Made by a program: the position numbers and the translations under genes | Notes under the pieces: generated by a model | Database searches by the model: none | What the model was told of the DNA's origin: nothing | Seen by the model: the letters and a program-made list of their open reading frames with translations, nothing else | Part shown: piece by piece, positions 6,958-59,442 of the stretch | How positions within the stretch are numbered: the first letter of the stretch is position 1 | Layout of the letters: each line of letters begins with the position of its first letter | NCBI GenBank assembly: GCA_046302855.1 | Contig: JBKCHH010000005.1 | Coordinates: forward strand, 26 to 64,025 | DNA: 64,000 bases | Direction: 5' to 3' | Origin: Alphaproteobacteria bacterium | GTDB lineage: Bacteria > Pseudomonadota > Alphaproteobacteria > Rickettsiales > UBA8987

Positions 6958-7096
6958 GTTATTGCGAGGAGTCAAAATTTATTTTTGGCGACAAAGCAAT
7001 CCATAAGCAAGGTAGAGTTTAGTTTTCAGAAATAGTTATTGCAAGAAAAACCATTTTTGTGGATTGCCACGCTCGCTAAAGCTCGCTCGCAATGAC
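6958..7096. repeat. palindromic MITE/RPE-like element, type A
   Basis: Termini gttattgcgagg...ctcgcaatgac. Core caatccataagcaaggtagag...tgtggattgccac is shared with the copies at 15954, 17539, 23706 and 56906. Confidence 0.8.
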
Positions 7097-7178: not shown

Positions 7179-7964
7179 CTAGAAACCAATTTTAGTAGCT
7201 ATTATACAACCTGGTATTATAGCAGATGCGTTAGCAGTAGTATTAGCTTCATCTACATAATAGTCTGTAGGAGCAGGAGCAGTACCAACTACTGCACAAT
7301 TAGCTACCGTGGCAGACATTGGGGTACTAACTACACCACTAGCAGTTGTGGCGGAAGTTACAAAAAATGTACCAGTATGCGGTTTTGCATCATCTATTTT
7401 ACTATCTAAAGCATATGATTCTGAACCAGAAAGACCGCTAGTGCCAGTTAAAGCATCTACCCCCGTATAGGAATTGCTCGCAGCTACATAGGTTGGAGTT
7501 GTACCAAATATTAGATAGTTTGCGGTTGTTGTGCTACCAGAGTTTAACAAAAGACCAGAAGATTTCCTAACTTTTGCAGGTATAACATTCGCGGCATTAG
7601 GTGCAGTATCTTGTATTAAGCCAGCCAAGAAAAGCGACTGAAAAGCAACATTAGCTTCTGTTCCGGCGGTCTGTACAACACCCTCAATAAACCCATCCCC
7701 ATCTGGGGTTGTTGTTGCAGCAATAGTGCTAAAAAATCTGGTAGGATTTGGTAAATCACCCGGTAAAAAGCTGTATTTTGTTTGGAAAGCACCAATTGAA
7801 GTTTTTATCTCTTCAATTTGGCGTAATTGACCCCTTACTTTTGCTTGGGCTATTAGAGCTTGCCCAGCAAGCACACCTGAAACTATTAAGCCAATTATTA
7901 CTAGAACTATAGAAAGCTCTACCAGTGTAAAACCTGCCTGGTTTTTTTGTTTATTGATATTCAT
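7179..7964 (-). CDS. type IV pilin / pseudopilin-like protein with prepilin N-terminal methylation motif
   Basis: 261 aa. N-terminus KNQAGFTLVELSIVLVIIGLIV (G/F cleavage site, Glu5). Thr/Ala/Gly-rich body and a C-terminal Cys pair (NCAVVG...PGCII). TAGGAG RBS. Confidence 0.75.
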   Translation of the reverse strand: MNINKQKNQAGFTLVELSIVLVIIGLIVSGVLAGQALIAQAKVRGQLRQIEEIKTSIGAFQTKYSFLPGDLPNPTRFFSTIAATTTPDGDGFIEGVVQTAGTEANVAFQSLFLAGLIQDTAPNAANVIPAKVRKSSGLLLNSGSTTTANYLIFGTTPTYVAASNSYTGVDALTGTSGLSGSESYALDSKIDDAKPHTGTFFVTSATTASGVVSTPMSATVANCAVVGTAPAPTDYYVDEANTTANASAIIPGCIIATKIGF

Positions 7965-8042
7965 AAATTATTCTCCTAAAAAGGGTTGATTACACCCTAC
8001 TGTTATTACAAGTATTTATATATGCAAGCTATTTTTTAGTTT

Positions 8043-9302
8043 ATGACCTTCAATTACAAAAAACACCTCCATCACCTTTGGTTACCATATAGTAATGGGG
8101 TTGATGAGCCGATTTTGCAACCTATCAAAAGGGCAAGGGGCGTGCATTTAACCAATTATAAGAATGAGAAGATAATTGATGGCATTTCTTCTTGGTGGTG
8201 TGTATCGCACGGGCATAACCATCCACACATTGTTAAGGCTATAAAAAGCCAGCTAAAAGATTTTTCGCACATTATGTTTGGCAACCTTGCCCATAAGCCG
8301 GCTTATCTTTTGGCAGAAAAATTAATAGGGCTAATTGGTAGTGGTATTAAGAGAGTATTTTATAGTGATTCCGGCTCAGTAGCGGTAGAAGTGGCGTTGA
8401 AGATGGCGGTGCAGTATTATACTAATCAAGGCTTTGTTAACAAAACAAAATTCATTCATTTTGAAAATGGCTATCATGGGGAAACCCTTGGCGCAATGAG
8501 CGTATCACAAGGTTTTGGTAATTTTCAAACTAGCCTTGGCAATTTTGTTCCGCAAAACTTTTGTTTAAAAATTCCAAATTCAGATAAAGATTTTGCTCAG
8601 TTTGAAGAATTCTTGCATAAAAACCACGGGCAAATTGCAGGGCTAATTATTGAGCCTTTGGTGCAGGGTGCTGGTGGTTTTAAATTCCACAGCAAAGAAA
8701 CTTTAGAAAAAATATTTAGCATCACCAAAAAATACGATATTTTATTTATTCTAGATGAAATTATGGTGGGGTTTTTAAAGCTGGGCAAAAGCCTGTTTGC
8801 TTTTCAGCAAACTAATATTCAGCCAGATATAATATGTTTAAGCAAGGGTTTAACTGGCGGAGCATTGCCCCTTGCCATTACTGCTGTGAGGGAGGAAATA
8901 TACAAACAGTTTTCATCAAAAGATGGAGAGAAAACCTTTAATCACGGTGGCACCTTTATGGCAAACCCGCTTGCCTGTAGCGCCGCCATTGCCTCACTTG
9001 AATTGTTTGCAGGGGAGAAAAGAAAAAACCAAGTGGCAAAAATTGAGGAGCAGTTGAAATTAGGGCTGAAGCCCAACGCCAAAATCAAAGAAATCCGCAT
9101 TCAGGGGGCAATTGGCGTTCTGGAGTTAAAAACCAGCAACCCAAAAATAATCCACAAATTAAGGGAAAAGTTCTTGTATGAACAGCTGGTGCTAATTCGC
9201 CCCTTTGCTAATGTTATTTACTTAATGCCTCCATTTATTATAAGGGAAGGGGAACTAGAAAAATTAATCAAAGCCATATATAAGGTGCTTGATGAAATCT
9301 AA
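8043..9302 (+). CDS. bioA: adenosylmethionine-8-amino-7-oxononanoate aminotransferase
   Basis: 419 aa. SSWWCVSHGHNHPHI, DEIMVGF, and PLP-lysine context LSKGLTGG. Confidence 0.85.
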   Translation: MTFNYKKHLHHLWLPYSNGVDEPILQPIKRARGVHLTNYKNEKIIDGISSWWCVSHGHNHPHIVKAIKSQLKDFSHIMFGNLAHKPAYLLAEKLIGLIGSGIKRVFYSDSGSVAVEVALKMAVQYYTNQGFVNKTKFIHFENGYHGETLGAMSVSQGFGNFQTSLGNFVPQNFCLKIPNSDKDFAQFEEFLHKNHGQIAGLIIEPLVQGAGGFKFHSKETLEKIFSITKKYDILFILDEIMVGFLKLGKSLFAFQQTNIQPDIICLSKGLTGGALPLAITAVREEIYKQFSSKDGEKTFNHGGTFMANPLACSAAIASLELFAGEKRKNQVAKIEEQLKLGLKPNAKIKEIRIQGAIGVLELKTSNPKIIHKLREKFLYEQLVLIRPFANVIYLMPPFIIREGELEKLIKAIYKVLDEI

Positions 9303-15953: not shown

Positions 15954-16084
15954 GTCATTGCGAGCGAGAGCTTTGCTTAGAAAGCGTGGCAATCCACAAA
16001 AATGGTTTTTCTTGAAAAAAACGACTGAAATCTAAGCTCTGCCTTGTTTATGGATTGCCTTGTCGCTTCGCTCCTCGCAATGAC
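15954..16084. repeat. palindromic MITE/RPE-like element, type A (inverted relative to 17539 copy)
   Basis: gtcattgcgagcgag...cctcgcaatgac termini. The core is the reverse complement of the 17539..17667 copy. Confidence 0.85.
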
Positions 16085-16140: not shown

Positions 16141-16258
16141 ATTGCTATTGAATCGAAGTAAAAAACAATCCATAAACAAGATAGAACTTGGGCGTAAGGT
16201 ATTTTTTCAAGAAAAAACATTGTTGTGGATTGCTTCACCAAAAATGGCTCGCAATAAC
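16141..16258. repeat. degenerate type A palindromic element
   Basis: attgctattgaatcgaag...caatccataaacaagatagaacttgg...tgtggattgcttc...ctcgcaataac. Decayed termini. Confidence 0.6.
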
Positions 16259-16274
16259 CTGATAATAGCAGCTA

Positions 16275-17015
16275 TTAATCCTCATCTCCTTCAGAATCAT
16301 CATCTTCGCTATCTTCGTCTGATTTCTTTTTGGATTTTTTATCGCCATCTTTACAGGCAACTTGCAACCCATTATTTTCAGTTGGGCAGTTAGAAACCTT
16401 TAGTTCTTTTTTAGCTTCAACAGGAGCCGGTTTTGCTATAGAAGACTTGATTATAGCAGGGGTTAGCTTTTTGCTCTCACCAGTAAAGCCTTTGAAGAAC
16501 TTTTCAGTTGTTTTAACATTGCTTTTTACCCTTATGTTTAAACTACCATTATCTTCTTTATTGCTAAAGGCGTGAACGAACATATCTTTAGTTTTGTAAT
16601 CTTCTGGTTTCCAATCTAGCACAATATCGCCAAAATAGTTCACTTGACCCTTTTTAGCAACAAAGCTGTAGCCTTCTATGGTTTTGTTTCTTTCTAAGTG
16701 TTTAATAGAATAGCCCTTGCCAGCTAAATTACAGTGAATTTTAGTGAAATCCACATTGCCAGCCGGAGATTCTATAATCACATAATTATTTTTGGTTTTA
16801 TAAACATTTACTTCGCCAGCGGTGCTAGTAAAGGTATAGTCGCAACCGTTTTTGAATTCAGTTCCGTTAGATGTAAAATCTTTAAAGTTAGTAGTTATTT
16901 TTCCAACTGAAACCACTTTGTTTTTTGGTGTTTGTGATAAATTGTATTTATCAATTTTAGAGCTAGAGCAGGCAGTGAATAAAAATAGAGATAAAACCAA
17001 TATTAAAAAACGCAT
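16275..17015 (-). CDS. hypothetical lipoprotein with acidic C-terminal tail
   Basis: 246 aa. Signal plus lipobox LFLFTACSS. C-terminus KKSKKKSDEDSEDDDSEGDED. Confidence 0.6.
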   Translation of the reverse strand: MRFLILVLSLFLFTACSSSKIDKYNLSQTPKNKVVSVGKITTNFKDFTSNGTEFKNGCDYTFTSTAGEVNVYKTKNNYVIIESPAGNVDFTKIHCNLAGKGYSIKHLERNKTIEGYSFVAKKGQVNYFGDIVLDWKPEDYKTKDMFVHAFSNKEDNGSLNIRVKSNVKTTEKFFKGFTGESKKLTPAIIKSSIAKPAPVEAKKELKVSNCPTENNGLQVACKDGDKKSKKKSDEDSEDDDSEGDED

Positions 17016-17538: not shown

Positions 17539-17667
17539 GTCATTGCGAGGAGCGAAGCGACAAAGCAATCCACAAACAAGGCAGAGCTTGGATTTCAGAT
17601 GCTTTTTGCAAGAAAAACCTTTGTTGTGGATTGCCACACTTCGAGCAAAGCTCTCGCTCGCAATGAC
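17539..17667. repeat. palindromic MITE/RPE-like element, type A (best-preserved copy)
   Basis: gtcattgcgaggagcgaagcgacaaagcaatccacaaacaaggcagagcttgg...ttgttgtggattgccacacttcgagcaaagctctcgctcgcaatgac. Lies in the convergent gap between the HPP gene and frr. Confidence 0.9.
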
Positions 17668-21073: not shown

Positions 21074-21290
21074 GTCATGAGCCGAGGGAGTCTCGCTGAA
21101 GCGATAGCGGAAGCAGACGACGCGGCAATCCAGACTAGCCTTCACCGTCATTGCGAGAAGTCTCGCTGAAGCGATAGCGGAAGCAGACGACGCGGCAATC
21201 CAGTTTATAAATACAATATTTTAGAATTTCTTTTTGAACTTTATTTACTGGATTGCTTCTGCACGAGCCTTGCTCTGCTAAGCTCATGAC
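21074..21290. repeat. composite type B palindromic element with tandemly duplicated left arm
   Basis: Left arm ...agtctcgctgaagcgatagcggaagcagacgacgcggcaatccag occurs twice (21074..21133 and 21147..21203). Outer termini are gtcatgagc / gctcatgac. Core ctggattgc. Confidence 0.8.
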
Positions 21291-21321: not shown

Positions 21322-23475
21322 CTACTTCACCATTTTTCGAACAACATTTCTGGTGCCTTCGCCTATTTTGTTGCCTATTTGTTCGTTATCACCGGTAATT
21401 ATTTTGCCGACACTCTCTATACTTGCAATCTTACCGCCAAAGCCGAAAGATTGCCACAGGTTCACCATATTCTGTAGCAGGGCAAAAACAAAATATAGGC
21501 TAGCTAAAAACACTAGGAAGTAGCTAAATACATCGCTCCATTCTAAACGAACGCCACCCTCCTCTACATTCCCTTCGGTTGTTAACACTGGCACAAACAA
21601 GGTAAAGGTGCTAGCACCAGTAGTAGTAGCACTAGAAGAAGAGGCTACGCTAGATCCTGCACCCCCACCACCACCTTTATTATTAAGCACAGCCCCTGTA
21701 ATGCAATTTCCTATAGGGTTTACAGCCCCGCCCCCAGTTGGGTAACATTCAAAGTGTAAATGCACACCTGTACTTCTACCCGTAGTTCCCATATCTGCTA
21801 TTCTTGCCCCAGCCTCTACTATATCGCCCCTTTCCACTAAAAATTTATTTAAGTGAAGATACCTAGTGAAACCACCGTTACAATCCCACACTTCTAGTTC
21901 ATTACCCGCCTTAGAACCGGGGTAATCAGGAACAAGCCTATTAACTATACCGTAAACATTAGCACAAACTGGTGAACCTTTGTCCCAGGCAAGATCTATT
22001 CCCCAATGCATTCTACCCCATCTCCAGCCATAGCCTGAAGTAAATACATGGAAAGGAGCTGGATGGCACCTATCGCTAACAGCAAATCCCTTAGTCTTTG
22101 TTGCATCTGGATTGCAATCGGTAATTCTGCATCCTGGACCAGCCTTACCGCTACCAGGCGAGCCATTACAAGTAGCCAAAAATTTCTGTTTTTCAGCCTG
22201 ACTCAATCCCCCACCGCCACCATAGGCACCACTTGAAGTGGCACTGGATGATTGGTCTGAATTTTGTGTTTTGCCCCCAAGGATAGATTTTTTATCTATC
22301 TTACCTCCATTTATTACCGTCCAAGCATCACACAGGTTTTTACTACTTTTGTCTAATATATTGAAAGAAAAGAATAAAACCCCAACATAAATACCAAAAA
22401 ATAAGGCATTGCCAAATATTACTATGGTTAGCGTATTAAGCATTTTTCTAAATTTTTTGAAAATGGAAAGGGGGCCAAACAATGGGAGCAAAAGAATGGT
22501 GAGCAGAAACAATAGACTTGTTCCCACATAGATAAAAAATATGTTGATGGTAAGGCGAATTATATACCAGATAATCATTATTAGTATCAAAGCTAAGGCT
22601 AAGCCAAAGCCAAAGGAAAAAAACAGCACTATAAAGAAGGTGATTATTTTAAACTCTTTTGAAAAGGCTAATTGGTATAAGTTAAAACCACTCGCACAGG
22701 CTCCCTCGCCAGAAAAGATAACCAAGCCAAAAACACGCATTATAATGGTGCTTAGTTTTTTAAATACCACCAACAAAACCCCATCTTGCGAACTGGCATA
22801 ATAGGTGGGGTCATAGGCTTGTGAGGCACTAATTGCAATCCCTTCCCCTATTCCCCTTATGAACTTCATTAACTCTTCTACATTATCTATATTAATGGTG
22901 GCAAAGGCGAAAGAGGCGTAAAAAACGGTGGTGAAGAATTCTGATACTGGATTTTCTATTAAACCTAGTGAAAGCCTATAACCAAATAGAAAAATAAAAA
23001 CTATTACTATAGAGTAGCTAAGTGTTTTAATAAAATCATCCTCGAAAATTATCTTTCTTACCTCCTCCATATTTCTTGTTGCCTCATAGATTATACAATG
23101 GGCAATTTTTCCTAAAAAGGGGTCGTAATAGGCAATATTATTTTCATCACCACATTTCATACTATCACCCGCCAAAGACCAGTTTAGGGCAGTATTGCCA
23201 GTGCAATCTGCATAGGCTATAAGGTTTTTTTCATTAGCCTCGTTTAGGGCTTTTATTTTAGCTTGAATGGAAACAAGTAGCGATTGGTTATTGTTCTGCC
23301 TAGCTATGTCTTGTTGCTTGGCATAATCTTCCATTGTTTTAGCATAGGCCGTCATATCCGCCTTTGCCTTATTACATTGTTCTGGAGTGGGAGGGGTGGT
23401 GGCACCAAACCCAAAACTTGGCATTAAAACCAGCAGCAAGCATAACAGTATATATTTTATAGAAGCTCTTATCAT
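21322..23475 (-). CDS. polytopic membrane protein with embedded M23 (LytM-type) metallopeptidase domain
   Basis: 717 aa. Signal peptide, then at least six hydrophobic spans (residues about 150-380). Gly/Ser linkers. M23 motifs HWGIDLA (HxxxD) and GVHLHFE (HxH). A further C-terminal TM segment. Confidence 0.75.
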   Translation of the reverse strand: MIRASIKYILLCLLLVLMPSFGFGATTPPTPEQCNKAKADMTAYAKTMEDYAKQQDIARQNNNQSLLVSIQAKIKALNEANEKNLIAYADCTGNTALNWSLAGDSMKCGDENNIAYYDPFLGKIAHCIIYEATRNMEEVRKIIFEDDFIKTLSYSIVIVFIFLFGYRLSLGLIENPVSEFFTTVFYASFAFATINIDNVEELMKFIRGIGEGIAISASQAYDPTYYASSQDGVLLVVFKKLSTIIMRVFGLVIFSGEGACASGFNLYQLAFSKEFKIITFFIVLFFSFGFGLALALILIMIIWYIIRLTINIFFIYVGTSLLFLLTILLLPLFGPLSIFKKFRKMLNTLTIVIFGNALFFGIYVGVLFFSFNILDKSSKNLCDAWTVINGGKIDKKSILGGKTQNSDQSSSATSSGAYGGGGGLSQAEKQKFLATCNGSPGSGKAGPGCRITDCNPDATKTKGFAVSDRCHPAPFHVFTSGYGWRWGRMHWGIDLAWDKGSPVCANVYGIVNRLVPDYPGSKAGNELEVWDCNGGFTRYLHLNKFLVERGDIVEAGARIADMGTTGRSTGVHLHFECYPTGGGAVNPIGNCITGAVLNNKGGGGGAGSSVASSSSATTTGASTFTLFVPVLTTEGNVEEGGVRLEWSDVFSYFLVFLASLYFVFALLQNMVNLWQSFGFGGKIASIESVGKIITGDNEQIGNKIGEGTRNVVRKMVK

Positions 23476-23705: not shown

Positions 23706-23834
23706 GTCATTGCGATGAGCTTTAGCGAAGAAGCAATCCATAAACAAGGTAGAGCTTGGGTATCAGATATTTTTTCAAGAAAAACCATTTTTGTGGATTG
23801 CCACACTTCGAGCAAAGCTCTCGTTCGCAATGAC
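23706..23834. repeat. palindromic MITE/RPE-like element, type A
   Basis: gtcattgcgatgag...caatccataaacaaggtagagcttgg...gtggattgccacacttcgagcaaagctctcgttcgcaatgac. Confidence 0.9.
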
Positions 23835-23841
23835 GATTTCT

Positions 23842-23886
23842 AAAAAAAAGGCGAACCCTAAACATTGTATGTTTAAAGCCCGCCCT
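23842..23886 (-). terminator. probable Rho-independent terminator after the phasin-like gene
   Basis: On the minus strand, an imperfect stem (ggcg...aaacat-aca-atgttt...cgcc) is followed by a T8 run. Confidence 0.45.
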
Positions 23887-23909
23887 TATTCAAAAATTAT
23901 CAGCAATAA

Positions 23910-24606: not shown

Positions 24607-25203
24607 ATGCGTATAAGTAGTGGGCTTTTAAAAGGAAGGAAAATCTCTTCCAAACTGCCGAATAACAAAGAACTAGAAGGCTTTCGCCCAACTTCTGGTA
24701 AGGTAAAACAGGCTATTTTTAACATAATAATTCACAACCAAAATTTTCCTGATAGGTTTTTACAAAGTGCAAATGTGCTAGATTTATGCTGTGGCACAGG
24801 CTCACTTGGTATAGAGGCAATTTCACGCGGGGCGTTAGGTGCCACCTTTATTGATAATAATATTGAAATTCTAAAATTAGCTGAAAAAAATGTGGCCCAT
24901 TTAGGGGCAGATTACGCTAAAAAAGCCAAGTTTTTACGCATGGACGCCTTTGAAATTCCACCCAAAAAGCCCACCCAAGCTGGGTTTGATTTAATTTTTT
25001 TAGACCCGCCCTATAAAGAGCCTAAAACCTATATTCTGCCTAACCTTATGGTTGATACTGGCTGGCTAAATAAAAATGGTTTTATAGTTTTAGAAACCAA
25101 TAAAAGTTTTGAGATAAAAGAATTAAGCCCCAAATTAAAACTGCTGATTGAGAAAAAATACAATAACACTAAGGTGTTTATTTTTGGGTATAATCTTCTC
25201 TAA
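24607..25203 (+). CDS. rsmD: 16S rRNA (guanine966-N2)-methyltransferase RsmD
   Basis: 198 aa. RPTSGKVKQAIFNI, LDLCCGTGSLGIEAISRGA, IFLDPPY. Confidence 0.85.
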   Translation: MRISSGLLKGRKISSKLPNNKELEGFRPTSGKVKQAIFNIIIHNQNFPDRFLQSANVLDLCCGTGSLGIEAISRGALGATFIDNNIEILKLAEKNVAHLGADYAKKAKFLRMDAFEIPPKKPTQAGFDLIFLDPPYKEPKTYILPNLMVDTGWLNKNGFIVLETNKSFEIKELSPKLKLLIEKKYNNTKVFIFGYNLL

Positions 25204-25720
25204 CATAAACTGGCTCTATGTTATTGGTGGTAAGATGTTGAAACTTATGATAAAAACTTATCATATCTTTGGCTGAGAAATCTATTTCATCAAATTCATT
25301 TGCATCTTTTAATGTTATTTCGCTGATTGCCTTCAAATTCTTATCAAATTTTTGATGAAAAATTTGCCCCCTTTTGGCATCTTGCTTTATTTCTATTGGG
25401 TTTAGCCCATCGTATAATTTGAATGCCAAAAGTTGTGTTGAGGTTATTCCTATCAACTGGGTATTCATAGCCAGCCTAAAGCCTATGGCGGTTGAAATGG
25501 CAATTCTAATTCCGGTAAAGGTTCCGGGGCCTAAATTTACTAGAAGTGTTTTAATATCTTGGTGCTTTAGATTAGTTTTTTTTATTAACTGATTGATTTT
25601 TAACATCAAAACTTTGGAGGTATTTTCTTTTATTGCAGAATCTGCATCTTCAATAACCTCGCCATTATTTTCTATAGCTACTGAATAAATAGAATGGGCG
25701 GTGTTAATGGCTAGGAGCAT
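25178..25720 (-). CDS. tsaB: tRNA t6A37 biosynthesis protein TsaB
   Basis: 180 aa. LVNLGPGTFTGIRIAISTAIG. Starts 42 nt after the rplO stop, in the position normally held by secY. Confidence 0.75.
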   Translation of the reverse strand: MLLAINTAHSIYSVAIENNGEVIEDADSAIKENTSKVLMLKINQLIKKTNLKHQDIKTLLVNLGPGTFTGIRIAISTAIGFRLAMNTQLIGITSTQLLAFKLYDGLNPIEIKQDAKRGQIFHQKFDKNLKAISEITLKDANEFDEIDFSAKDMISFYHKFQHLTTNNIEPVYVREDYTQK

Positions 25721-25762
25721 AAACTTCTTCTAATGAACCTAATAAGATTAACAACCAATAAA

Positions 25763-26248
25763 CTATCCAACCAAGGTTTCTTTTGGCAGTTCCACTAGAA
25801 CACCGGCTGATTTTAAAGTATCGATAGCCTTTTGAGAAGCGTTATCTACCTTAATGGTGAACTTTGTTTTGCTTTTTATTTCGCCACGGGCAAGCAGTTT
25901 AATGCCATCTTTATTATTAGCCACAAGACCTAGCTTTTCTAAGCGAGTAGAATCTAAAGTATCCCCTGCTTTTATTCTACCAGATTCAAGCAGACGATTT
26001 AAATCATCTAGGTTGATTACTTCAAATTCTTTGCGATTATAATTGTAGAAGCCCCTTTTTGGTAAACGGCGGTGAATTGGCATTTGCCCACCTTCAAAAC
26101 CATTTATGGCAACGCCACTTCTTCCCTTTTGACCCTTACCACCACTTCCGCAAGTTTTACCTTTGCCAGAACCAATGCCACGCCCTACCCTTTTAAATTT
26201 TTTGTTAGAGCCTTCGGGTAATCTTATTTCATTTATTGCTAATCCCAT
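25763..26248 (-). CDS. rplO: 50S ribosomal protein L15
   Basis: 161 aa. KRVGRGIGSGKGKTCGSGGKGQKGRSG. Operon position. Confidence 0.95.
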   Translation of the reverse strand: MGLAINEIRLPEGSNKKFKRVGRGIGSGKGKTCGSGGKGQKGRSGVAINGFEGGQMPIHRRLPKRGFYNYNRKEFEVINLDDLNRLLESGRIKAGDTLDSTRLEKLGLVANNKDGIKLLARGEIKSKTKFTIKVDNASQKAIDTLKSAGVLVELPKETLVG

Positions 26249-42693: not shown

Positions 42694-42815
42694 GTCGCCA
42701 TTGCGAGGAGCTTTCTCAAAAAAGCGACGCGGCAATCCAGTAAATAAAATTCAAAAAATATACCAAAAATATTGTATTTATAAACTGGATTGCTTGCGTG
42801 CCGCCTCGCAATGAC
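42694..42815. repeat. palindromic element, type B
   Basis: gtcgccattgcgagg...gcgacgcggcaatccag...ctggattgcttgcgtgccgcctcgcaatgac. Lies in the convergent htrA/miaA gap. Confidence 0.85.
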
Positions 42816-50404: not shown

Positions 50405-52195
50405 CTAAAACTTAATTTCTCTACTTTCTGGAATAACCGGCAATATAAGTTGCGATGGGTATTCTTTTGTGTGAAAAATTTTCTGCTTGGCAACTTTTGA
50501 TTTAGTAGCAGTAGGTATGAATTCCCCCGTATTAAGGTTGCGATCATAGCGGGGGAAATTGCTACTTGATACTTCCAGCCTTATTTTATGCCCTTTTAAG
50601 AAAACATTACTGGTTGGCCATAGCTCTATTTCAATTTTAGTGGGCGCATTGCCATTAGATGCTTTGTAGGTTTGGCGTAATATTCCATCTGAAAGATTAT
50701 ACGCCAAGCCATCGGGGTGAACATCTACTAGCTTTGCGGTGAAATCTGTTGATGGCGCATCGGTTGAAACGTAGAGTATGGCTTTAATTGGGCCCGTTAC
50801 CTCAATTTTTTTAGATAACGCTGCGGTGGTGTAGACCAACACATCTGGTCGTTCTTCAATTGTATTTTGAAGTTCAATTCCTGCTCTATTACTTAACATC
50901 GCTCCCCCAGCTGTAGGTACTGGATTAGTGGGGTCATAAATATATGCATCATGTTCAGCTTTATCGTTAGTTGAAGAAATACTCAAAAAGCCATCACCAT
51001 TTAGAGTGTTCGCTTTGCCGTTACTGTGCAGATAAAATGGAACATATTTTGTGCGAGCTAATGGCCACTGGTTTTCATCACGCCAGCGATTTTCCCCCAT
51101 AACAAAAATCTTTACCTTTGGCATATTTAGTGGCGCGTTCGTTATACCCAGCACATAATCAAACCATGCGATGCTTTGGGTAACGCTTTGACTTCGGTAT
51201 GGCACTTCTTCATTTGAATTTGGCAGCTTTACAGATTTAGCATGTCCCCACGGTCCAATAACTAGGCGTGTTTCTTTGGCAACAGATGGTTTCGCCTTGG
51301 TGGCAATGGTGCTAAAATCTTCAAGTTGCGTGGGCAAGAATGGATCAAACCAACCAGCCATAAGTAATACGGGGGCCTGAATTGTTTGGGCTCTATGCTC
51401 ACCATCAATTTTTTTCCAATAATCATTTTTTTGAGTATTTAATGCCCAGTCATTGAAGAAATTCGTATCGCCAATAGCTTCATCATCAGCTTCAATAGTC
51501 GGCAAGTGATTTACACCACGGTCTAAATCTTTAAGATCAACATCCCTATCTTTTTTGCCACGACTGCGTATTGCCCAATTGATAGCGCTTTCCAGCGAGA
51601 AGGCATTTCCTGGATAAAACATTTTATAAAAATTGCTGCTGGCAATTTGTATAAAAAAAGCATTTACGCTTGGATTTTTTTGATCAGCAACTGCCCACTG
51701 GGTATAGCCAAATGCAGAGCCACCCCACATGGCAAGGCGTCCGTTATACCAAGGCTGGCTTGCTACCCATTTAAGGGTTTGAATTCCATCTTCGCGTTCA
51801 TGCATCAGCGGATAAAATTCACCGCCAGATTTATATCTACCACGTGTACCTTGTAGTACTACCGTGTAACCTCTGCTCGCCCAGTAACGCGCGATAATGC
51901 CAGAGCGCGCCTGATTACTAATGGTATCACTAAGCGGAATTCGTACTAAAATTGTTGGGGTTTTTTTAAGTCCTTTTGGGTGATATATATCCGCCACCAA
52001 TTTAACCCCATCACTGGTTTTAAAGCTAATTGTTTCCTTCGTTACACTATAATCTGCTTGCCGCACACCTTCCGAAGAAAGTAAAAATTTATTTGCAACA
52101 AAATCAGTGGTAATCGCACAGCCAGAAAGCACTAAAATAACAGTTGCCAGTTTTATGGCATTGAAAGTACGTTTTGTTAATTTTAAAATGTCCAA
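50405..52195 (-). CDS. CocE/NonD-family (S15 X-Pro dipeptidyl-peptidase-like) alpha/beta hydrolase, lipoprotein
   Basis: 596 aa. Lipobox VLSGCA. GYTVVLQGTRGRYKSGGEF. Nucleophile elbow WGGSAFGY. C-terminal WPTSNVFLKGHKIRLEVSSSNFPRYDRNLNTG. Confidence 0.8.
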   Translation of the reverse strand: MDILKLTKRTFNAIKLATVILVLSGCAITTDFVANKFLLSSEGVRQADYSVTKETISFKTSDGVKLVADIYHPKGLKKTPTILVRIPLSDTISNQARSGIIARYWASRGYTVVLQGTRGRYKSGGEFYPLMHEREDGIQTLKWVASQPWYNGRLAMWGGSAFGYTQWAVADQKNPSVNAFFIQIASSNFYKMFYPGNAFSLESAINWAIRSRGKKDRDVDLKDLDRGVNHLPTIEADDEAIGDTNFFNDWALNTQKNDYWKKIDGEHRAQTIQAPVLLMAGWFDPFLPTQLEDFSTIATKAKPSVAKETRLVIGPWGHAKSVKLPNSNEEVPYRSQSVTQSIAWFDYVLGITNAPLNMPKVKIFVMGENRWRDENQWPLARTKYVPFYLHSNGKANTLNGDGFLSISSTNDKAEHDAYIYDPTNPVPTAGGAMLSNRAGIELQNTIEERPDVLVYTTAALSKKIEVTGPIKAILYVSTDAPSTDFTAKLVDVHPDGLAYNLSDGILRQTYKASNGNAPTKIEIELWPTSNVFLKGHKIRLEVSSSNFPRYDRNLNTGEFIPTATKSKVAKQKIFHTKEYPSQLILPVIPESREIKF

Positions 52196-53271
52196 TTTAA
52201 CCCCAACCCTTTGATGTTATTTTCGCCTAAATTCACCATTCCTTTTTTACCAAACATGATGGGGCTATCATTAATATCGTGTTCTAACAGGTGCGTACCA
52301 TAAGCGCCTTCCTGAGCGATTAGGATGTCACGATATGCATTTGCCAAAGATATAGCTACTCGCGTTAAGATGCTGGTTTCGCCAACTTGTGCGCCGATGA
52401 TGAATTTAATGCCGCGTTTCCTGCATTCTTCCGCTATATCAAGTGAGCGAAGCAACCCACCCATTTTTGAAATGCGAATGTTGGGTATCCAAATGTTGGA
52501 ATCGCCTGATAAATGGTCAAGGTCTGCAATTTTTAAAAAACTCTCATCCAGAATAATTTTGCAGCCCAAATGTTCTGCCAGTGTTTTTAAGCCCACATAA
52601 TCACTAATTTTTATTGGTTCTTCAACTGCCCAAAAATATTTGGCAATAGAAGATAAATAAGTGATTGCTTCATCTGCATTATTCCATAAATTATTTGCAT
52701 CCAGCCTTATTTTAGCACTTGGTAGTGTGGTGCTAATGGCTTTGATATTTGCTTTATCAATAGAGGCATCACCAGAGATTTTCACCTTGAAATCATTAAA
52801 ACCAATCTGAATATATTGCGCCAGCTGCGCCGCAAAAACTTTGGGGTTAGATATACCAAGCACGGCGGTGTAATGAAAGCTGCCCTGAATTTCTGGAATA
52901 CCCAACACCGCTTCAATAGATTTATTTTCTAGTTTGCCAAGCAAATCAAGAATTGCCGTTTCTATGGCGCACCAAGCGGCAGGGTTTTTGTCAATAGCGG
53001 GTTGGTTGGCAGATATAAACCTTTTCAGTGAATCAATACCATCTACTTTTACTATGTCATGATGGTGGTTTGCGATAAAATCCATGCATGATTTTATACT
53101 CTCACCCGTAACATAACTGCGTGGGCAGCCCTCACCATAGACAATTACACCACTTTCTGAATAGGCTAGTGCTATTATAGTTTCTGTTTTAGTTCTCTGC
53201 GCTGATGCGTGCTTGAATGAAACACGAAACGGTATTTCCAGTTTCTTTAGTTCTATTTTTTTTAATTTCAT
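52183..53271 (-). CDS. enolase-superfamily enzyme, muconate-lactonizing-enzyme subgroup (dipeptide epimerase / N-acylamino acid racemase-like)
   Basis: 362 aa. FKVKI (KxK), RLDANNLW, VEEPI, ILDESF and RISKMGG give the MLE-subgroup ligand/base pattern. ATGA overlap with the GH3 gene. Confidence 0.75.
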   Translation of the reverse strand: MKLKKIELKKLEIPFRVSFKHASAQRTKTETIIALAYSESGVIVYGEGCPRSYVTGESIKSCMDFIANHHHDIVKVDGIDSLKRFISANQPAIDKNPAAWCAIETAILDLLGKLENKSIEAVLGIPEIQGSFHYTAVLGISNPKVFAAQLAQYIQIGFNDFKVKISGDASIDKANIKAISTTLPSAKIRLDANNLWNNADEAITYLSSIAKYFWAVEEPIKISDYVGLKTLAEHLGCKIILDESFLKIADLDHLSGDSNIWIPNIRISKMGGLLRSLDIAEECRKRGIKFIIGAQVGETSILTRVAISLANAYRDILIAQEGAYGTHLLEHDINDSPIMFGKKGMVNLGENNIKGLGLNWTF

Positions 53272-54944
53272 GGCTGTATATGCTCCTGAAATGGAAATTG
53301 TACATCGGCGCGGTATTGCAATTTTATCACCTTAAATTGCCCTTCGCGTTGTCCCGCTTTAATGCAAAGTGATTTATAGGCTTCAAGCGTTCCTTTTTTT
53401 AAGCGTTTTACATCCGCAAACTTTATTCTGCCGCTTTGTGCTTTTGATAGATATTCAATATTTAGCTCACCTAGATGGGAATTTAGTTGTTGTGCGAAAC
53501 TTAAAACATCAAATTTATCTGCTGATTCAATGTAAAGCGTATATGAGAAATCTTGCTGATCAGCCAGCATCATAAAGAATTCAGGCGTGATATTATGGGC
53601 TTTTGCAGCTTCGGTAGCGGCAGTAATTACTTGGCTTTCATAAAGCTTTTCACCTGTAAAACTGGTAACACCTTTGCCTTTTTGCACAAAAGCGATAGTT
53701 GGAGTATTTTGGTAACGGCCTGTAACTTCAATAATATCATTGATAAAATAGCGGTAGAGTCCATTTGACGTAGTGACGATGATGTAGTATTTTTTGCCCA
53801 TCTCTAGCTGCGACAGTAGTAAGATTTTCTTATTACCACCATCCCAACTTTCCACTTGCGCAAATTCGAAGAAATTATCCTGCAATGTAGGAATACCAAG
53901 GTTACGCTCACAATCAATAGTGATAGTTCCTCTAAATTCGCTTGAAAGATAGCCCATTTCAACAATTTTTGTTTCGGGTAATAGTTGTTTTTTTAGTTTT
54001 GGTATTAATAGTGCGCAGTTACCACTTGTCCAGGTTACAACACCTTGCAAATTCGGCCATATATCAGTAAAATGCAAATTTCCTTTATTTTTTTTAAGCA
54101 ATTTAAGTGCTTTTGCCCTTTGTGGATCAGGTGTAGCATAGTCTGCAAATTGCTGTTTCTGCTTGCTATTTAGCGTAACATTAAGCGCATCAAAATTGCC
54201 TGTTTCTATAAATTCTATTATTGCATCGCCTTGTTGCTGAATTATTTCGCTAAGGCGAATTAATGTGGATGGGTTTGCAGTGCCTATACAAGAAATATAA
54301 TCTTCACGCATTGCAAATGCTGCCATAAGGCTATACTTTGTCTCATAATTTTCAATTTCAAATACTGCAGGTTTTAAGACATATTTTGAAAAAATAATAT
54401 CTGGCATGTTTTCATAGATTAGCCCTGACATTGAGCCATAAGGCGTTTCATCACTTAAATGCCCTTCGATGGCGGGGCTGACAATAGCCAAAATTTTACC
54501 AGAAAAAATTTTAGGAATATCTCGGTACTGTATAAATGAAAAAATACGCTGGGCGCGTTTGTATGAATTAATCGTGCCTTTTAAAATAGGAATATATTTA
54601 GGTTTGCCCGTAGTGCCGCTTGTTTGTGCATACATTAGTGGTTTTTCGGGAACGATAGCGAAATCACCTGTTGTAATTTGCTTTTCAATGTATGGGCGCA
54701 AGTCTTCATAGGTATGCACGGGAACGCTTTTAATGAAATCTCCTACATTACGGATAGAGGAAAAATTATAATGCTTACCAAACTCAGTGTTTTTATTTTG
54801 TTTTAGTATGCGCCTAAAAATATCTTTTTGGCATTTATCTGGATTACGAGCATTACTAATAAGCGAACGCAAAAGAATATGCTTCACCAGCAGCATTTTT
54901 AGCCACATTAAACTATTGGTGATTTTTTGTTTGCGATAACTCAT
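53268..54944 (-). CDS. GH3-family acyl-acid amido synthetase (adenylate-forming)
   Basis: 558 aa. YAQTSGTTGKPKYIP, GYLSSEFRG, GLYRYFINDIIEVTG. ATGA overlaps at both ends. Confidence 0.8.
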   Translation of the reverse strand: MSYRKQKITNSLMWLKMLLVKHILLRSLISNARNPDKCQKDIFRRILKQNKNTEFGKHYNFSSIRNVGDFIKSVPVHTYEDLRPYIEKQITTGDFAIVPEKPLMYAQTSGTTGKPKYIPILKGTINSYKRAQRIFSFIQYRDIPKIFSGKILAIVSPAIEGHLSDETPYGSMSGLIYENMPDIIFSKYVLKPAVFEIENYETKYSLMAAFAMREDYISCIGTANPSTLIRLSEIIQQQGDAIIEFIETGNFDALNVTLNSKQKQQFADYATPDPQRAKALKLLKKNKGNLHFTDIWPNLQGVVTWTSGNCALLIPKLKKQLLPETKIVEMGYLSSEFRGTITIDCERNLGIPTLQDNFFEFAQVESWDGGNKKILLLSQLEMGKKYYIIVTTSNGLYRYFINDIIEVTGRYQNTPTIAFVQKGKGVTSFTGEKLYESQVITAATEAAKAHNITPEFFMMLADQQDFSYTLYIESADKFDVLSFAQQLNSHLGELNIEYLSKAQSGRIKFADVKRLKKGTLEAYKSLCIKAGQREGQFKVIKLQYRADVQFPFQEHIQP

Positions 54945-55828
54945 TTCGCTTTATCAATACCTTTAATAAACGGGGTTTTCATTTGGGTTATAAAGTCATA
55001 AGGATAGTTTCTGTTCAGTAGCCCAAGGTCGCCAACTTTCCTTTCTTTCGGGTAAAAAAAGGTACCGAACAAAATATCCCACACAATAACATTGTTACCA
55101 TAATTACTGTTAGATTCTTTAATGGTTTTAGAGTGGTGCCAGCGATGCAGCTCAGGACCACTGATGATATAGTTCAGCCAGCCCAGTTTAGTATCAACAT
55201 TACTGTGCTGAAAAAATCCTTTAATGGAATATACCACAAAATAAAGCGTCAGCACTTGTTCTGATACTCCAAGCAAGATGAATGGCAGCGCATCACAAAG
55301 AAATTGCAGTGATTTATCGATGGGGTGGAATCTGCCCACATTCAGCCAATATAACTTTTGCACCGAATGATGCACGGCATGAACACGCCAAAGCGGGATC
55401 CACATATGCGAGGCGCGGTGCAGCCAGTAACGAAGAAAATCGGCTAAAAACATCATAAGTAGCATCTGTAACCATACTGGCCAGGTGTGTGGCCATAAGC
55501 CTGTTAGTTCAAGTCCATATGCCTTTGCAAACGATACCAAATATACAGCTGTGAGTATGGTTAAAAGTTTCGGCAACACCACTTGTATAAGTAGCATGAA
55601 TGCAAGGTCGGTCTTGATTTCACTGCGATTAGGAAGCCATTCTTTTCGGTAAGGCAAAACAATCTCAAACAACGTAATTAGGCCAAGCCCGCCAATAACA
55701 CCTGCTGTAAAGCTGCTTAAGGTAAAACTTACCCCATAATGAATCAGTCCATAATACAGCCCAAGGCTTACCGCCATAACCGCTGGATACACCGTCCAAG
55801 TTAGAATATTTCTGATTTTGTTATTCAT
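54941..55828 (-). CDS. fatty acid hydroxylase superfamily (sterol desaturase-like) membrane di-iron enzyme
   Basis: About 295 aa from ATG 55828 (MNNKIRN), which overlaps the upstream stop by 8 nt. His boxes HRASH, HAVHH, HRWHH. Four or more TM spans. Confidence 0.8.
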   Translation of the reverse strand: MNNKIRNILTWTVYPAVMAVSLGLYYGLIHYGVSFTLSSFTAGVIGGLGLITLFEIVLPYRKEWLPNRSEIKTDLAFMLLIQVVLPKLLTILTAVYLVSFAKAYGLELTGLWPHTWPVWLQMLLMMFLADFLRYWLHRASHMWIPLWRVHAVHHSVQKLYWLNVGRFHPIDKSLQFLCDALPFILLGVSEQVLTLYFVVYSIKGFFQHSNVDTKLGWLNYIISGPELHRWHHSKTIKESNSNYGNNVIVWDILFGTFFYPKERKVGDLGLLNRNYPYDFITQMKTPFIKGIDKAK

Positions 55829-56267
55829 ACGCCCCCTTTTTATTACCATTTTTATAGTGAAAATGCCCAACCAGCAAAAAGAATGATGCCAGCACGATAT
55901 GAAAGAATGCAGGAATATGCGCACCCAACCAAGGGTGGCTAGTTGCAAATGTGAACCCCGCAATTAGCCGAAGCACCATCACCACAAAATAGATGCCACC
56001 CAACGCAAGCATCCATATACCTAATTTGCGCCGCGCTAAAATGTGCCCCTTTACAAAACCAGCAATTACCCAAATCATAACAAGAATAATTAGAATTTGT
56101 GATACTAGCAGCCAAGGGTAAGCTAGCTTACCACTATACCACGCCTCAAACGGCGGTAAAAAAGGCAGGTTATAAAATTTCTGGATCAACTGCACAATAA
56201 CGCGGAAAACGAATAGAATAAAGCAAATGCAAAGCCAAAGGGTATAATGCGTAACAAAAGATTTCAT
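55821..56267 (-). CDS. 4-TM membrane protein with conserved-looking intramembrane His residues (unknown family)
   Basis: 148 aa. First gene of the block. His in or near TM segments (THYTLWL; HIPAFFHIVLASFFLLVGHFHY). Its layout loosely recalls b-type cytochrome subunits. Confidence 0.5.
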   Translation of the reverse strand: MKSFVTHYTLWLCICFILFVFRVIVQLIQKFYNLPFLPPFEAWYSGKLAYPWLLVSQILIILVMIWVIAGFVKGHILARRKLGIWMLALGGIYFVVMVLRLIAGFTFATSHPWLGAHIPAFFHIVLASFFLLVGHFHYKNGNKKGAYE

Positions 56268-56905: not shown

Positions 56906-57056
56906 GTCATTGCTATTGACGCGAAGCGACAAAGCAATTGTCCAAAAACAAGGCAGAGCTTGGATAACAGACAAGTTTTTGCAAGAAACGCCTTTGTTGT
57001 GGATTGCCGCGTCGTCCGCCTACGCTAAGGCTTCGGCGAGACTTCCTCGCAATGAC
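56906..57056. repeat. palindromic element, type A core with type B-like extended right arm
   Basis: gtcattgctattgacgcgaagcgacaaagcaat...ggcagagcttgg...gtggattgccgcgtcgtccgcctacgctaaggcttcggcgagacttcctcgcaatgac. Confidence 0.85.
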
Positions 57057-57073
57057 GAATATCGGAACAAAAC

Positions 57074-57826
57074 CTAAAAAGGTGTAATTATATCAATAAC
57101 TTGGTTGCCAATTCTTGGTTGCTGAACATCTGAAATTAAGCCCCTACCACCGTAAGAGATTCTAGCCTCGGCTATTCTTTCCGCATCTACCGTATTTTGC
57201 GGAGTTATGTCATCTGGGCGAACCACCCCCTCTACTGTTAACTGCCTAATTTCGTTATTCACCCTAATTTCTTGTGAGCCATATATTACCAAATTGCCAT
57301 TATTAGTTACTTGGGTTACAACCGCTGCCACCTTAGTTTCAATCTTTTCTTGCCTACCAATTGAGCCTTCCCCCTTATTATCTAGGTTAGAGCTTTTGGA
57401 TAACAAATTAGAAGGGTCTGGCGTGCCGGGTAGATTTTTTATCAACAGATTATTTTCTGCACCAAATAGTTTTGGAATGCCAAGTTTATCAGATTCCTCC
57501 CTTGTTCTTTCTGTTTTATTGTTCAAATCTGCCTTATCTGAAATGGCAACATTTACGGTTAGAATATCGCCCGCATTTTTGGCTCTTTTATCGGCAAAAA
57601 ATTGCCTTGCCCCATCACTCCACAGGGAATTTTTCTTTATGTTTGCCTTATTATCTTGCTTGGCGGTGCTTGGCCACTTAATTGGCACGGAGGATTGCTT
57701 TTCATCTGGAATTTTAGATTCGCTCATCGGCGGAGCCTTGCCCACCCATTTTAGCCTATCTACCTGCGAAGATACGCATCCAGATAAAGATAAAGCTAGT
57801 AATATTGTTGCGGTAATAATTTTCAT
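57074..57826 (-). CDS. flgH: flagellar L-ring lipoprotein FlgH
   Basis: 250 aa. Lipobox LSLSGCVS. DKRAKNAGDILTVNV...NGNLVIYGSQEIRVNNEIRQLTVEGVVRPDDI. Confidence 0.9.
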   Translation of the reverse strand: MKIITATILLALSLSGCVSSQVDRLKWVGKAPPMSESKIPDEKQSSVPIKWPSTAKQDNKANIKKNSLWSDGARQFFADKRAKNAGDILTVNVAISDKADLNNKTERTREESDKLGIPKLFGAENNLLIKNLPGTPDPSNLLSKSSNLDNKGEGSIGRQEKIETKVAAVVTQVTNNGNLVIYGSQEIRVNNEIRQLTVEGVVRPDDITPQNTVDAERIAEARISYGGRGLISDVQQPRIGNQVIDIITPF

Positions 57827-58623: not shown

Positions 58624-58631
58624 AAAAAATA

Positions 58632-59417: not shown

Positions 59418-59442
59418 AGTTTACTCCCCTTTTGGTTAATTA

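Follow-up and report, generated by a model that had tools for sequence, protein, structure and literature searches.

The gene and its product

The stretch of DNA analysed here, called the window throughout, comprises 64,000 nucleotides (nt) of contig JBKCHH010000005.1 (positions 26 to 64,025, forward strand; assembly GCA_046302855.1, Alphaproteobacteria bacterium). The gene in question lies on its reverse strand at 21322..23475, an open reading frame (ORF) with an ATG start that encodes 717 amino acids (aa) and is already in NCBI as MFN5351088.1, ‘MAG: M23 family metallopeptidase [Alphaproteobacteria bacterium]’ (MAG, metagenome-assembled genome). A first-pass annotation, made from the letters alone, had described the product as a polytopic membrane protein with an M23 peptidase domain lodged between transmembrane (TM) blocks, and the ORF and the order of its parts are present exactly as it claimed: the signal peptide, the Cys-containing soluble region, the GGGGG linker, a second Gly/Ser/Thr linker, the last TM helix and the tail were all seen. 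For comparison we used the records of the window protein itself (P0001 and P0184), an 87% homolog (P0002, on contig L001 of a close relative), a third population (P0063/P0185, on L105) and a distant member (P0062, on L003); contig L002 was also compared. The parts of the gene and the evidence that delimits them are as follows.

21322..23475 (-): whole gene, polytopic membrane protein with embedded M23 peptidase (ORF, Pfam, homolog alignment)
23404..23475 (-): signal peptide, residues 1-24 (hydropathy; conserved in L001 5′ of the annotated start; counterpart in P0062)
23032..23403 (-): periplasmic N-domain, residues 25-148, helical hairpin with four invariant Cys and a YYDPF motif (alignment, topology; the sole region modelled with a predicted local distance difference test score, pLDDT, of 60-68)
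22354..23031 (-): polytopic membrane block, residues 149-374, four strong and two weaker TM segments, a sequence orphan (hydropathy, homology searches)
22930..23016 (-): sole segment with above-noise VirB6 similarity, residues 154-182, TM1 and FGYRLSLGLIENPVSEF (hhalign, tblastn)
22435..22467 (-): invariant cytoplasmic loop SIFKKFRKMLN, residues 337-347, main topogenic marker (alignment; four K/R, no D/E)
22048..22353 (-): linker 1, residues 375-476, Ser/Gly-rich with a GGGGG run and four invariant Cys (hydropathy, alignment)
21700..22047 (-): M23 catalytic core, residues 477-592, with H490, D494, H541, H572 and H574 invariant (Pfam, PDB match, alignment)
21706..22278 (-): hypervariable recombining cassette, ~residues 400-590 (nt identity, dN/dS, allele comparison)
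21538..21699 (-): linker 2, residues 593-646, Gly/Ser/Thr-rich (hydropathy)
21466..21537 (-): terminal helix TM7, residues 647-670 (hydropathy; less hydrophobic in P0062)
21322..21465 (-): K/R-rich tail, residues 671-717, predicted cytoplasmic, and stop codon (topology markers)

On the Kyte-Doolittle scale, strong TM segments lie at residues 149-172, 277-305, 309-336, 348-374 and 647-670, and two weaker candidates lie at 181-196 (short) and 233-254 (containing K/R), so that the ‘at least six’ packed helices of the first-pass annotation stand if both weak segments are counted and fall short otherwise. Each linker holds one GGGGG run (residues 419-423 and 601-605). Twelve Cys are invariant, four in the N-domain, C260 in the membrane block and seven across linker 1 and the M23 domain. 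The signal sequence MIRASIKYILLCLLLVL is kept in the 87% relative, where it lies 5′ of the annotated start, and has a counterpart in the 39% relative P0062; its conservation upstream in the close relative supports the longer start and the signal peptide.

The topology markers agree across all members (window protein, P0002 and P0062). The signal peptide and the N-domain with its four Cys mark the periplasmic side, and the SIFKKFRKMLN loop marks the cytoplasmic side; after TM6 come the Cys-bearing linker and the M23 domain, and after TM7 the K/R-rich tail. The KKFRK loop is predicted to lie inside after five (or three) spans, with the N-terminus out and the end of the core domain cytoplasmic. 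By these markers the M23 domain is predicted periplasmic whether both weak TM segments span or neither does, in line with the side expected by the first-pass annotation, which had named a cytoplasmic M23 domain as the result that would overturn it. The M23 domain is thus predicted to be tied to the inner membrane at both ends, through linkers of ~100 and ~55 residues.

An intact M23 catalytic domain

Pfam places PF01551 at residues 488-587 of the window protein with 71 bits against a cut-off of 28.7 (E 9.9e-20), covering profile positions 1-96 of 96, and the M23 domain of P0062 scores 74.8 bits; no other family appears on the whole window protein at E≤1. The best PDB match of the domain is 9gy1_A (E 2.3e-21), and its nearest M23 cores are those of cyanobacterial LysM-M23 proteins, at ~48-50% identity. 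By profile and active-site motifs the protein belongs to peptidase family M23. The complete active-site set reported earlier (HWGID, HLH) was borne out: HWGID (H490, D494), H541 and HLH (H572, H574) do not vary among the three full-length members, and P0063 has them too. EnvC and NlpD are degenerate LytM factors; with all five catalytic and zinc residues intact, the M23 zinc endopeptidase described here is, unlike such factors, predicted to be catalytically competent.

No NCBIfam equivalog assignment could be made. The best match reached 63 bits where NF052336 requires 500, MepM reached 57 against 341 and ShyA 52 against 700, and the DipM, NlpD and EnvC equivalogs likewise match the M23 domain only, far under their cut-offs.

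A very small family with an orphan N-terminal block

The first-pass annotation had called an M23 domain between TM blocks unusual, and the architecture is real and limited to a tiny family in very large searches. A word-indexed search of 5.8 billion clustered proteins returned just two full-length matches, the window protein itself and P0002 (87%), the remaining 59 matches spanning the M23 domain only. An exhaustive phmmer search with residues 1-450 against 1.84 billion representatives added one member, P0062, at 42% identity over that query, which keeps the whole architecture from signal peptide to tail at 39% overall identity; a profile search then added just a fragment, P0063. The GTDB species genomes and two JGI metagenome scans gave no further family members, and a custom 42-bit pattern for the invariant loop FKKFRKMLN gave six matches in metagenomes, all of them chance. 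The same fusion therefore co-occurs in P0002 and P0062, as the first-pass annotation had asked of relatives, with P0063/L105 adding a third population that bears the cassette described below. All the members that these searches found come from a small number of alphaproteobacterial populations, none of them cultured.

The N-terminal block is without recognisable relatives outside its own family. A PDB profile search found none, and the membrane block matched no transporter or permease family; such a match was what the first-pass annotation had said would count against it.

The reality of the gene itself was weighed against a chimeric assembly, a fused or frameshifted gene pair and a decaying pseudogene. 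The source is a MAG and the gene is flanked by mobile repeats, which would be in keeping with an artefact. Against it, the same intact ORF is present in independent NCBI, ENA, JGI and Logan assemblies (P0184 being an identical-length 717-aa version in JGI/Logan), the architecture is kept at 39% identity with the catalytic residues and all 12 Cys invariant, and the ratio of nonsynonymous to synonymous divergence (dN/dS) is ~0.1-0.4 in every gene segment. On these comparisons an artefact or pseudogene can be taken as excluded, its residual chance being negligible.

A hypervariable, recombining catalytic cassette

Comparison of the window gene with that of L001 separates the gene into two very different parts. 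At the aa level, identity is 96-98% in the N-domain, the membrane block, TM7 and the tail, with a dS of 0.05-0.13. The M23 core (residues 477-592), in contrast, is 58% identical at the aa level and 62% at the nt level, with a dN of 0.42 and a dS of 1.06, and the linkers are intermediate. The third population, which has the same synteny, carries a third allele, whose core is 68% identical to that of the window and 53% to that of P0002 while its flanks are 96-100% identical. In 90-nt windows all three pairs drop to 48-78% nt identity over ~residues 400-590, versus 93-100% in the gene flanks and groEL.

Because dS rises along with dN, the pattern indicates replacement of alleles by recombination and not mere fast evolution. 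All alleles retain the catalytic residues and the family-specific Cys, and for that reason the donors of the cassette are taken to be family members; a paralogous M23 donor was not found in the window or the related contigs. GC content at third codon positions (GC3) is 49.6% in the M23 core at 21700-22047 (47.5% in L001) versus 31-39% in the other gene segments, in a window with an overall GC content of 37%, and the raised value is consistent with imported alleles. The cassette sample consists of three alleles from three populations.

A variable module joined to a conserved remainder is also the pattern by which polymorphic toxins are recognised, and this gene has it. No cognate immunity gene was seen immediately downstream, where a palindromic repeat resembling a miniature inverted-repeat transposable element (MITE) and convergent groEL lie instead; Pfam and PADLOC gave no secretion or delivery domain, PADLOC returned nothing at all, and PHROGs matched the M23 domain only. 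A known defence system was set aside for lack of a PADLOC match.

Sub-threshold similarity to VirB6

The first-pass annotation had likened the TM block to the TrbL/VirB6 layout by topology and had proposed a check against PF04610, which yielded a partial result. When the N-terminal 400 aa of each member were scanned against 24,736 Pfam families at E≤10, PF04610 (TrbL/VirB6) was the sole match, and it occurred in P0062 only, where residues 136-354 align to profile positions 2-181 of 215 with 15.5 bits (E 0.015), under the gathering cut-off of 25.9. The window protein and P0002 gave no PF04610 match at E≤10, and NCBIfam found nothing on the N-terminal blocks. As a calibration, the genuine VirB6 protein TraD of R46 matches the unrelated DUF2079 at E 0.012 in the same scan. 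Membership of the family in PF04610 is not established by these scores.

Profile comparisons used a reference set of TrwI (R388), TraD (R46), 8 further plasmid VirB6 proteins, 10 TrwI-like and 10 TrbL proteins, with records including NC_001735, NC_003292 and NC_028464. In hhalign, TrbL against VirB6, a true remote pair that served as the positive control, reached 98.2% (E 4e-14, 257 columns). The family profile against VirB6 reached 36.6% with a score of 36 over 30 columns, in which TM1 and FGYRLSLGLIENPVSEF align with TrwI YGWLIIRGAVEMPVAEF, and with an unbiased profile the probability was 27-37% (P 4e-4 to 7e-4), confident over 29-100 columns. The confidently aligned regions are the N-helix, TM1 and TM2. 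None of 60 locally shuffled decoys equalled the observed score with the VirB6 profile and 3 of 60 did so with the combined profile, and 41 real polytopic ORFs from the fetched loci, used as decoys, had a median score of 15.8 and a maximum of about 21.4-21.5, whereas the window block scored 23.2, the P0062 block 32.7 (100 collinear columns, VirB6 positions 6-112) and the family profile 33.3.

A tblastn search of 72,556 plasmids (7.3 Gb) gave no match for the window block and a single match for the P0062 block, at E=5, which falls in a VirB6 gene of an Iodobacter plasmid located between virB5 and virB8/9/10. The match spans the VirB6 N-helix and TM1, including IFAYRVMLGRVQNLFSE versus IFGYMIIAGRVQNSFQE. 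Adding the Iodobacter sequence to the profile, a biased step, raised the scores to 28.4 for the window block, 41.9 (75%) for the P0062 block and 38.0 (53%) for the family profile.

Other parts of the comparison gave no such signal. For the C-terminal half of VirB6, hhalign aligned nothing beyond a collinear GP-motif region, at a noise-level score, and with custom VirB6/TrbL hidden Markov models (HMMs) the window protein scored lower than the negative controls and P0062 barely higher. TrbL profiles reached 0.2-2% probability where a reversed decoy reached 16%, and a TrbL-type relationship, as opposed to a VirB6-type one, was accordingly rejected for lack of signal in hhalign, as was an N-domain resembling a VirB5/TrbJ-like cap (0.1% against 96.9% for the positive control). 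The periplasmic N-terminus and cytoplasmic core end fit a VirB6-type topology, but this feature is generic and not diagnostic. AlphaFold2 (AF2) models had a pLDDT of 31 at full length and 43 for the N-terminal 400 aa, too poor to weigh for or against the VirB6 fold (TrwI, PDB 8RT9/7O3J), and the best Foldseek match of the better model to the PDB had an E of ~1.

Of the proposed TrbL/VirB6 layout, then, the likeness to VirB6 survives below threshold, in the PF04610 match of P0062 and in hhalign scores above the decoys; the likeness to TrbL and to the C-terminal half of VirB6 does not, and the PF04610 check, although it named a sole family, left the window protein without a match. The profile scores point to a reproducible similarity to the N-terminal third of VirB6, and we put roughly even odds on true remote homology.

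Genomic neighbourhood

The order phasin gene, M23 gene and convergent groES-groEL recurs in L001, L002 and L105, a synteny across three populations. The following features lie outside the gene.

23847..23887 (-): terminator-like hairpin, a 19-bp stem followed by a T-run, after the upstream phasin gene (sequence inspection)
21074..21290 (unstranded): palindromic MITE-like element with a 45-nt internal duplication (repeat analysis; not part of the gene's system)
23706..23834 (unstranded): second copy of the palindromic MITE-like element, incidental (repeat analysis)

Because the terminator-like hairpin separates it from the phasin gene, the M23 gene is expected to have its own transcript; it is probably monocistronic, in a housekeeping neighbourhood, and an operon with the upstream phasin gene is unlikely given so strong a hairpin in between. 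Pfam scans of 40 further window ORFs returned, among others, HemC, PBP1a, GltX, photolyase, FabF, HflK/C, DegP, LeuA, GcpE and FlgH/A/G/F, together with a gene-transfer-agent (GTA)-type holin and lysozyme. An origin from a prophage, endolysin or tape-measure protein was rejected, as the phage and PHROG matches cover residues ~440-600 only and the neighbours are housekeeping genes.

No virB/trb or other type IV secretion system (T4SS) gene was found in the 64 kb window or in contigs L001, L002, L003 and L105, while all 21 of the 21 reference VirB6/TrbL loci have T4SS neighbours (virB5/eex/virB8 or trbJ/trbK/trbF). The other virB/trb genes that the first-pass annotation had asked to be located were thus not found in the window or its relatives' contigs, and the suggested fit with a lineage whose T4SS genes are scattered and lack VirB1 is not supported, as nothing in the window indicates such a genome: it encodes a broad metabolism, photolyase and flagellar genes, and its GroEL is ≤74% identical to those of scattered, diverse Alphaproteobacteria. 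A reduced genome of the Rickettsiales type was accordingly set aside as not indicated by window gene content or GroEL.

The neighbours of the P0062 gene in L003 are a pyruvate dehydrogenase E1beta (PDH-E1beta) gene, a YibQ-type PF04748 gene and an acyl-CoA dehydrogenase gene. The second of these, a YibQ-type ‘divergent polysaccharide deacetylase’ at L003 2160-3035 (+), lies 88 bp upstream of the P0062 gene on the same strand. The yibQ gene of E. coli stands directly after envC, a gene of the M23 family, and a functional link to the cell envelope is possible.

Palindromic elements had been reported on both sides of the gene, and both are real but incidental. Each consists of arms CGTCATTGCGA...GCAATCCA / TGGATTGC...TCGCAATGACG, with CGTCATTGCGA...TCGCAATGACG as the termini and GCAATCCA/TGGATTGC as the inner arms. 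The end motif has 17 matches in the window where 2.8 are expected, corresponding to ~7-8 copies of ~120-220 nt, always intergenic, at 6958-7096, 15954-16084 (plus 16249-16258), 17539-17667, 21074-21290, 23706-23834, 42697-42815 and 56906-57056; the duplication in the fourth of these is tandem-like (21089-21133 and 21159-21203). The syntenic close relative L001 has no such elements in the same intergenic spaces by the gene. Since the element is multi-copy in the window and absent next to the gene in L001, its flanking position is coincidental, and the palindromes were dismissed as part of the M23 system. Alone beside a copy of the element, at 7179-7964 (-), lies a gene whose 261-aa product bears an N-terminal methylation motif of the prepilin type (PF07963).

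Several further observations concern the window at large. The flagellar genes FlgH (L-ring), FlgA, FlgG and FlgF lie at 57074-60282 (-), 35 kb from the M23 gene, and make a flagellated organism probable; assembly of the flagellar rod likewise calls for a local peptidoglycan hydrolase. At the window edge, the GTA-type three-TM holin (PF11351; 62673-63080, +) overlaps the phage lysozyme (PF00959; 63059-63517, +), a pair reminiscent of the lysis cassettes of gene transfer agents. In the ribosomal-protein operon L15 is the last gene, and directly after it comes a TsaB-like gene in place of secY-adk, an arrangement (25178-26248, -) that L001 shares (7386-8468). A 246-aa ORF with no Pfam match, a conserved unannotated protein, lies next to the ribosome recycling factor (RRF) gene in three populations (16275-17015, -; L001 15888-16628; L105 4971-5711). 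Finally, 50405-55963 (-) holds co-directional genes for a PepX-type S15 peptidase, an MR/MLE enolase-superfamily protein, a GH3-family protein (acyl-acid amido synthetase-like) and a fatty-acid hydroxylase-family protein, an odd mix for a bacterium that may represent a pathway of small-molecule conjugation or modification.

Proposed function and alternatives

The explanation that we favour, while giving it no better than an equal chance of being right, is that the protein acts as a stand-alone, inner-membrane-integrated and doubly tethered M23 endopeptidase that cuts peptidoglycan cross-links only near its own scaffold. The signal peptide and the disulfide-capable N-domain are predicted on the periplasmic side, from which an odd number of TM spans would lead to the cytoplasmic KKFRK loop, and TM6 would return the chain to the periplasm, where linker 1, the M23 domain and linker 2 would hang between TM6 and TM7 with the tail left in the cytoplasm. 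The double tether would limit the reach of the enzyme to the sacculus directly above the protein, and the polytopic block may be a built-in anchor or regulator, perhaps a gate, as Csd7 is for Csd1/Csd2 and FtsX for EnvC. Polytopic partners of M23 enzymes have precedent (bioRxiv 10.1101/2025.08.29.672660). The catalytic module is swapped between strains by recombination, and its target (a peptidoglycan chemotype, a partner, an inhibitor or a phage) would be under diversifying or balancing pressure. The scaffold itself could be a highly diverged VirB6-type module, again at roughly even odds, sitting at this locus outside any T4SS gene set, and if it oligomerises like VirB6, which forms a pentameric stalk base (PMC12624023), several peptidase domains would surround one axis. 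Several points weigh against this explanation: a hypervariable catalytic domain is atypical for a housekeeping autolysin, the rarity of the family speaks against a core morphogenetic role, the weak VirB6 signal leaves room for a role in a secretion machine, both AF2 models (pLDDT 31 and 43) are unusable, and the two weak TM segments make the number of spans uncertain, although both even-parity alternatives still keep the M23 domain periplasmic.

The secretion-machine role would make the polytopic block a diverged VirB6/TrbL stalk subunit whose fused M23 domain replaces VirB1 and opens the sacculus at the site of machine assembly, a VirB6-like pentamer ringing the axis with five tethered peptidases. 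The collinear PF04610 match of P0062 as the sole Pfam family on the block (E 0.015), hhalign scores of 23-42 against a decoy maximum of ~21.5 and of up to 75% probability with the Iodobacter VirB6 added, a VirB6 gene as the sole plasmid tblastn match (E=5) and a compatible N-out, five-span, C-in topology before TM6 all speak for it. The local hole is normally made by VirB1, with VirB6 in the inner membrane beneath VirB5 (PMC12624023), and extended VirB6 proteins occur in Rickettsiales (PMC7648143). Every score nevertheless falls under the family thresholds, the window protein itself has no PF04610 match, and a true VirB6 matches an unrelated membrane family at E 0.012 in the same scan; there is no signal against TrbL or the C-terminal half of VirB6, the custom HMMs place the window protein below negative controls, and the N-domain is not VirB5/TrbJ-like. 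T4SS genes were not found in the 64 kb or in the relatives' contigs, the genome is not Rickettsiales-like, and the family is extremely rare although T4SSs are common. We consider this role quite unlikely.

The cassette can also be read as an interface of conflict, the variable face of a system of exclusion, antagonism or phage interaction in which allele exchange reflects an arms race; on this view phage entry proteins or inhibitors from competitors could target it, or it could determine exclusion much as the variable region of F/SXT TraG does. Sharp cassette boundaries, saturated dS and three alleles in three near-identical backgrounds argue for this reading, as do the raised core GC3 (48-50% versus 31-39%), the catalytic residues kept in all alleles and the concentration of variability in the N-terminal half of the core, where the substrate-groove loops of M23 enzymes lie. 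Against it, the M23 domain is fixed at either end to the inner membrane of its producer and would have to be released before it could reach another cell; moreover, downstream stand a MITE-like element and convergent groEL and no adjacent immunity-like or partner gene, PADLOC gave no match, the N-terminal block has no phage relatives, and the sample is just three alleles. It is, on balance, an unlikely though not far-fetched account. A further-reaching reading posits a VirB6-derived platform, an exapted or orphan stalk subunit with a strain-exchangeable tethered endopeptidase, whose pentamer would open a defined hole in the sacculus for a machine spanning the envelope and whose polymorphism would be maintained by an arms race in the periplasm, with entry or exclusion factors, phage or inhibitors as examples of the opponent; this reading strikes us as rather improbable.

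Comparison with known systems

The window protein shares HxxxD, the catalytic His and HxH with the M23/LytM family (PF01551; LytM, lysostaphin, MepM, ShyA). Members described so far are secreted proteins, lipoproteins or proteins with one membrane anchor, and carry LysM, OapA, coiled-coil or SH3b modules, whereas here a six-TM block precedes the M23 domain and a terminal TM helix follows it. The closest parallel in logic is Csd1-Csd2-Csd7 of H. pylori, in which an M23-type domain is controlled by a polytopic inner-membrane protein (bioRxiv 10.1101/2025.08.29.672660). This system and FtsEX-EnvC are made of separate polypeptides, and the likeness drawn here is one of organisation. FtsX, in FtsEX, holds and controls the M23-type EnvC at the inner membrane, and both EnvC and Csd2 are catalytically degenerate.

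VirB6/TrbL proteins (PF04610; TrwI of R388, PDB 8RT9) are likewise polytopic inner-membrane proteins with a periplasmic N-terminal helix, and the sub-threshold likeness is collinear over the N-helix, TM1, a G-x5-G-x4-P-x2-E-F motif and TM2. Unlike them, the window protein has a cleavable signal peptide, a 120-aa Cys domain, a fused hydrolase and no virB5, virB8, trbJ or trbK neighbours. F-type TraG carries a variable entry-exclusion determinant. Extended VirB6 proteins and F-type TraG pass the PF04610/TraG_N thresholds and lie in or near T4SS loci, unlike the window protein, and the likeness to extended VirB6 proteins is by analogy only. In the extended VirB6 paralogs of Rickettsiales, a VirB6-like polytopic module carries large extra domains (PMC7648143). 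Our literature search found no peptidoglycan hydrolase domain reported in extended VirB6 or TraG, and no fusion of VirB6 or TrbL to M23 described. PrgK, the membrane-anchored cell-wall hydrolase dedicated to the Gram-positive pCF10 T4SS, contains a LytM/M23-type domain (PMC11323569) and is likewise comparable by analogy only. It is anchored once, combines three hydrolase domains, one of them the degenerate and inactive LytM domain, and is a product of the T4SS operon itself.

Polymorphic toxin and cassette-exchange loci likewise combine conserved anchor or delivery parts with a recombining, divergent enzymatic module; here the variable module sits inside the protein, ahead of the conserved TM7 and tail, and not at the C-terminus as in polymorphic toxins, and no immunity gene adjoins the locus. 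Another M23 domain attached to a multi-span membrane module occurs in P0061 (PF05569 Peptidase_M56 + PF01551 + PF01464), which differs in that its membrane module is of the BlaR1-type M56 kind, no terminal TM helix follows the M23 domain and the N-terminal block is unrelated. A polytopic-anchored M23 domain is thus not unique, as the M56 + M23 + SLT arrangement of P0061 demonstrates; the novelty lies in the present scaffold, in the tethering at both ends and in a core that can be exchanged.

How bacteria restrict dangerous cell-wall hydrolases to a single site is a standing question, and the known solutions are separate membrane partners (FtsEX-EnvC, Csd7-Csd1, ActH-LytH) or machine-associated lytic enzymes (VirB1, FlgJ, PrgK). 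The significance of the present case is tempered by a family limited to a few uncultured alphaproteobacterial populations and by a function predicted from sequence. If the favoured explanation is true, the protein would be a solution within one polypeptide, in which an active M23 enzyme is held on a double leash by its own polytopic scaffold, and a compact model for the spatial control of peptidoglycan cleavage. If the weak VirB6 link is real, no earlier case of a VirB6-type module joined to a hydrolase would be known, and the protein would be evidence that T4SS stalk modules can be put to new use. A catalytic cassette that recombines while the rest of the gene stays nearly identical is, for a cell-wall enzyme, an uncommon pattern in population genetics and points to an unrecognised selective pressure.

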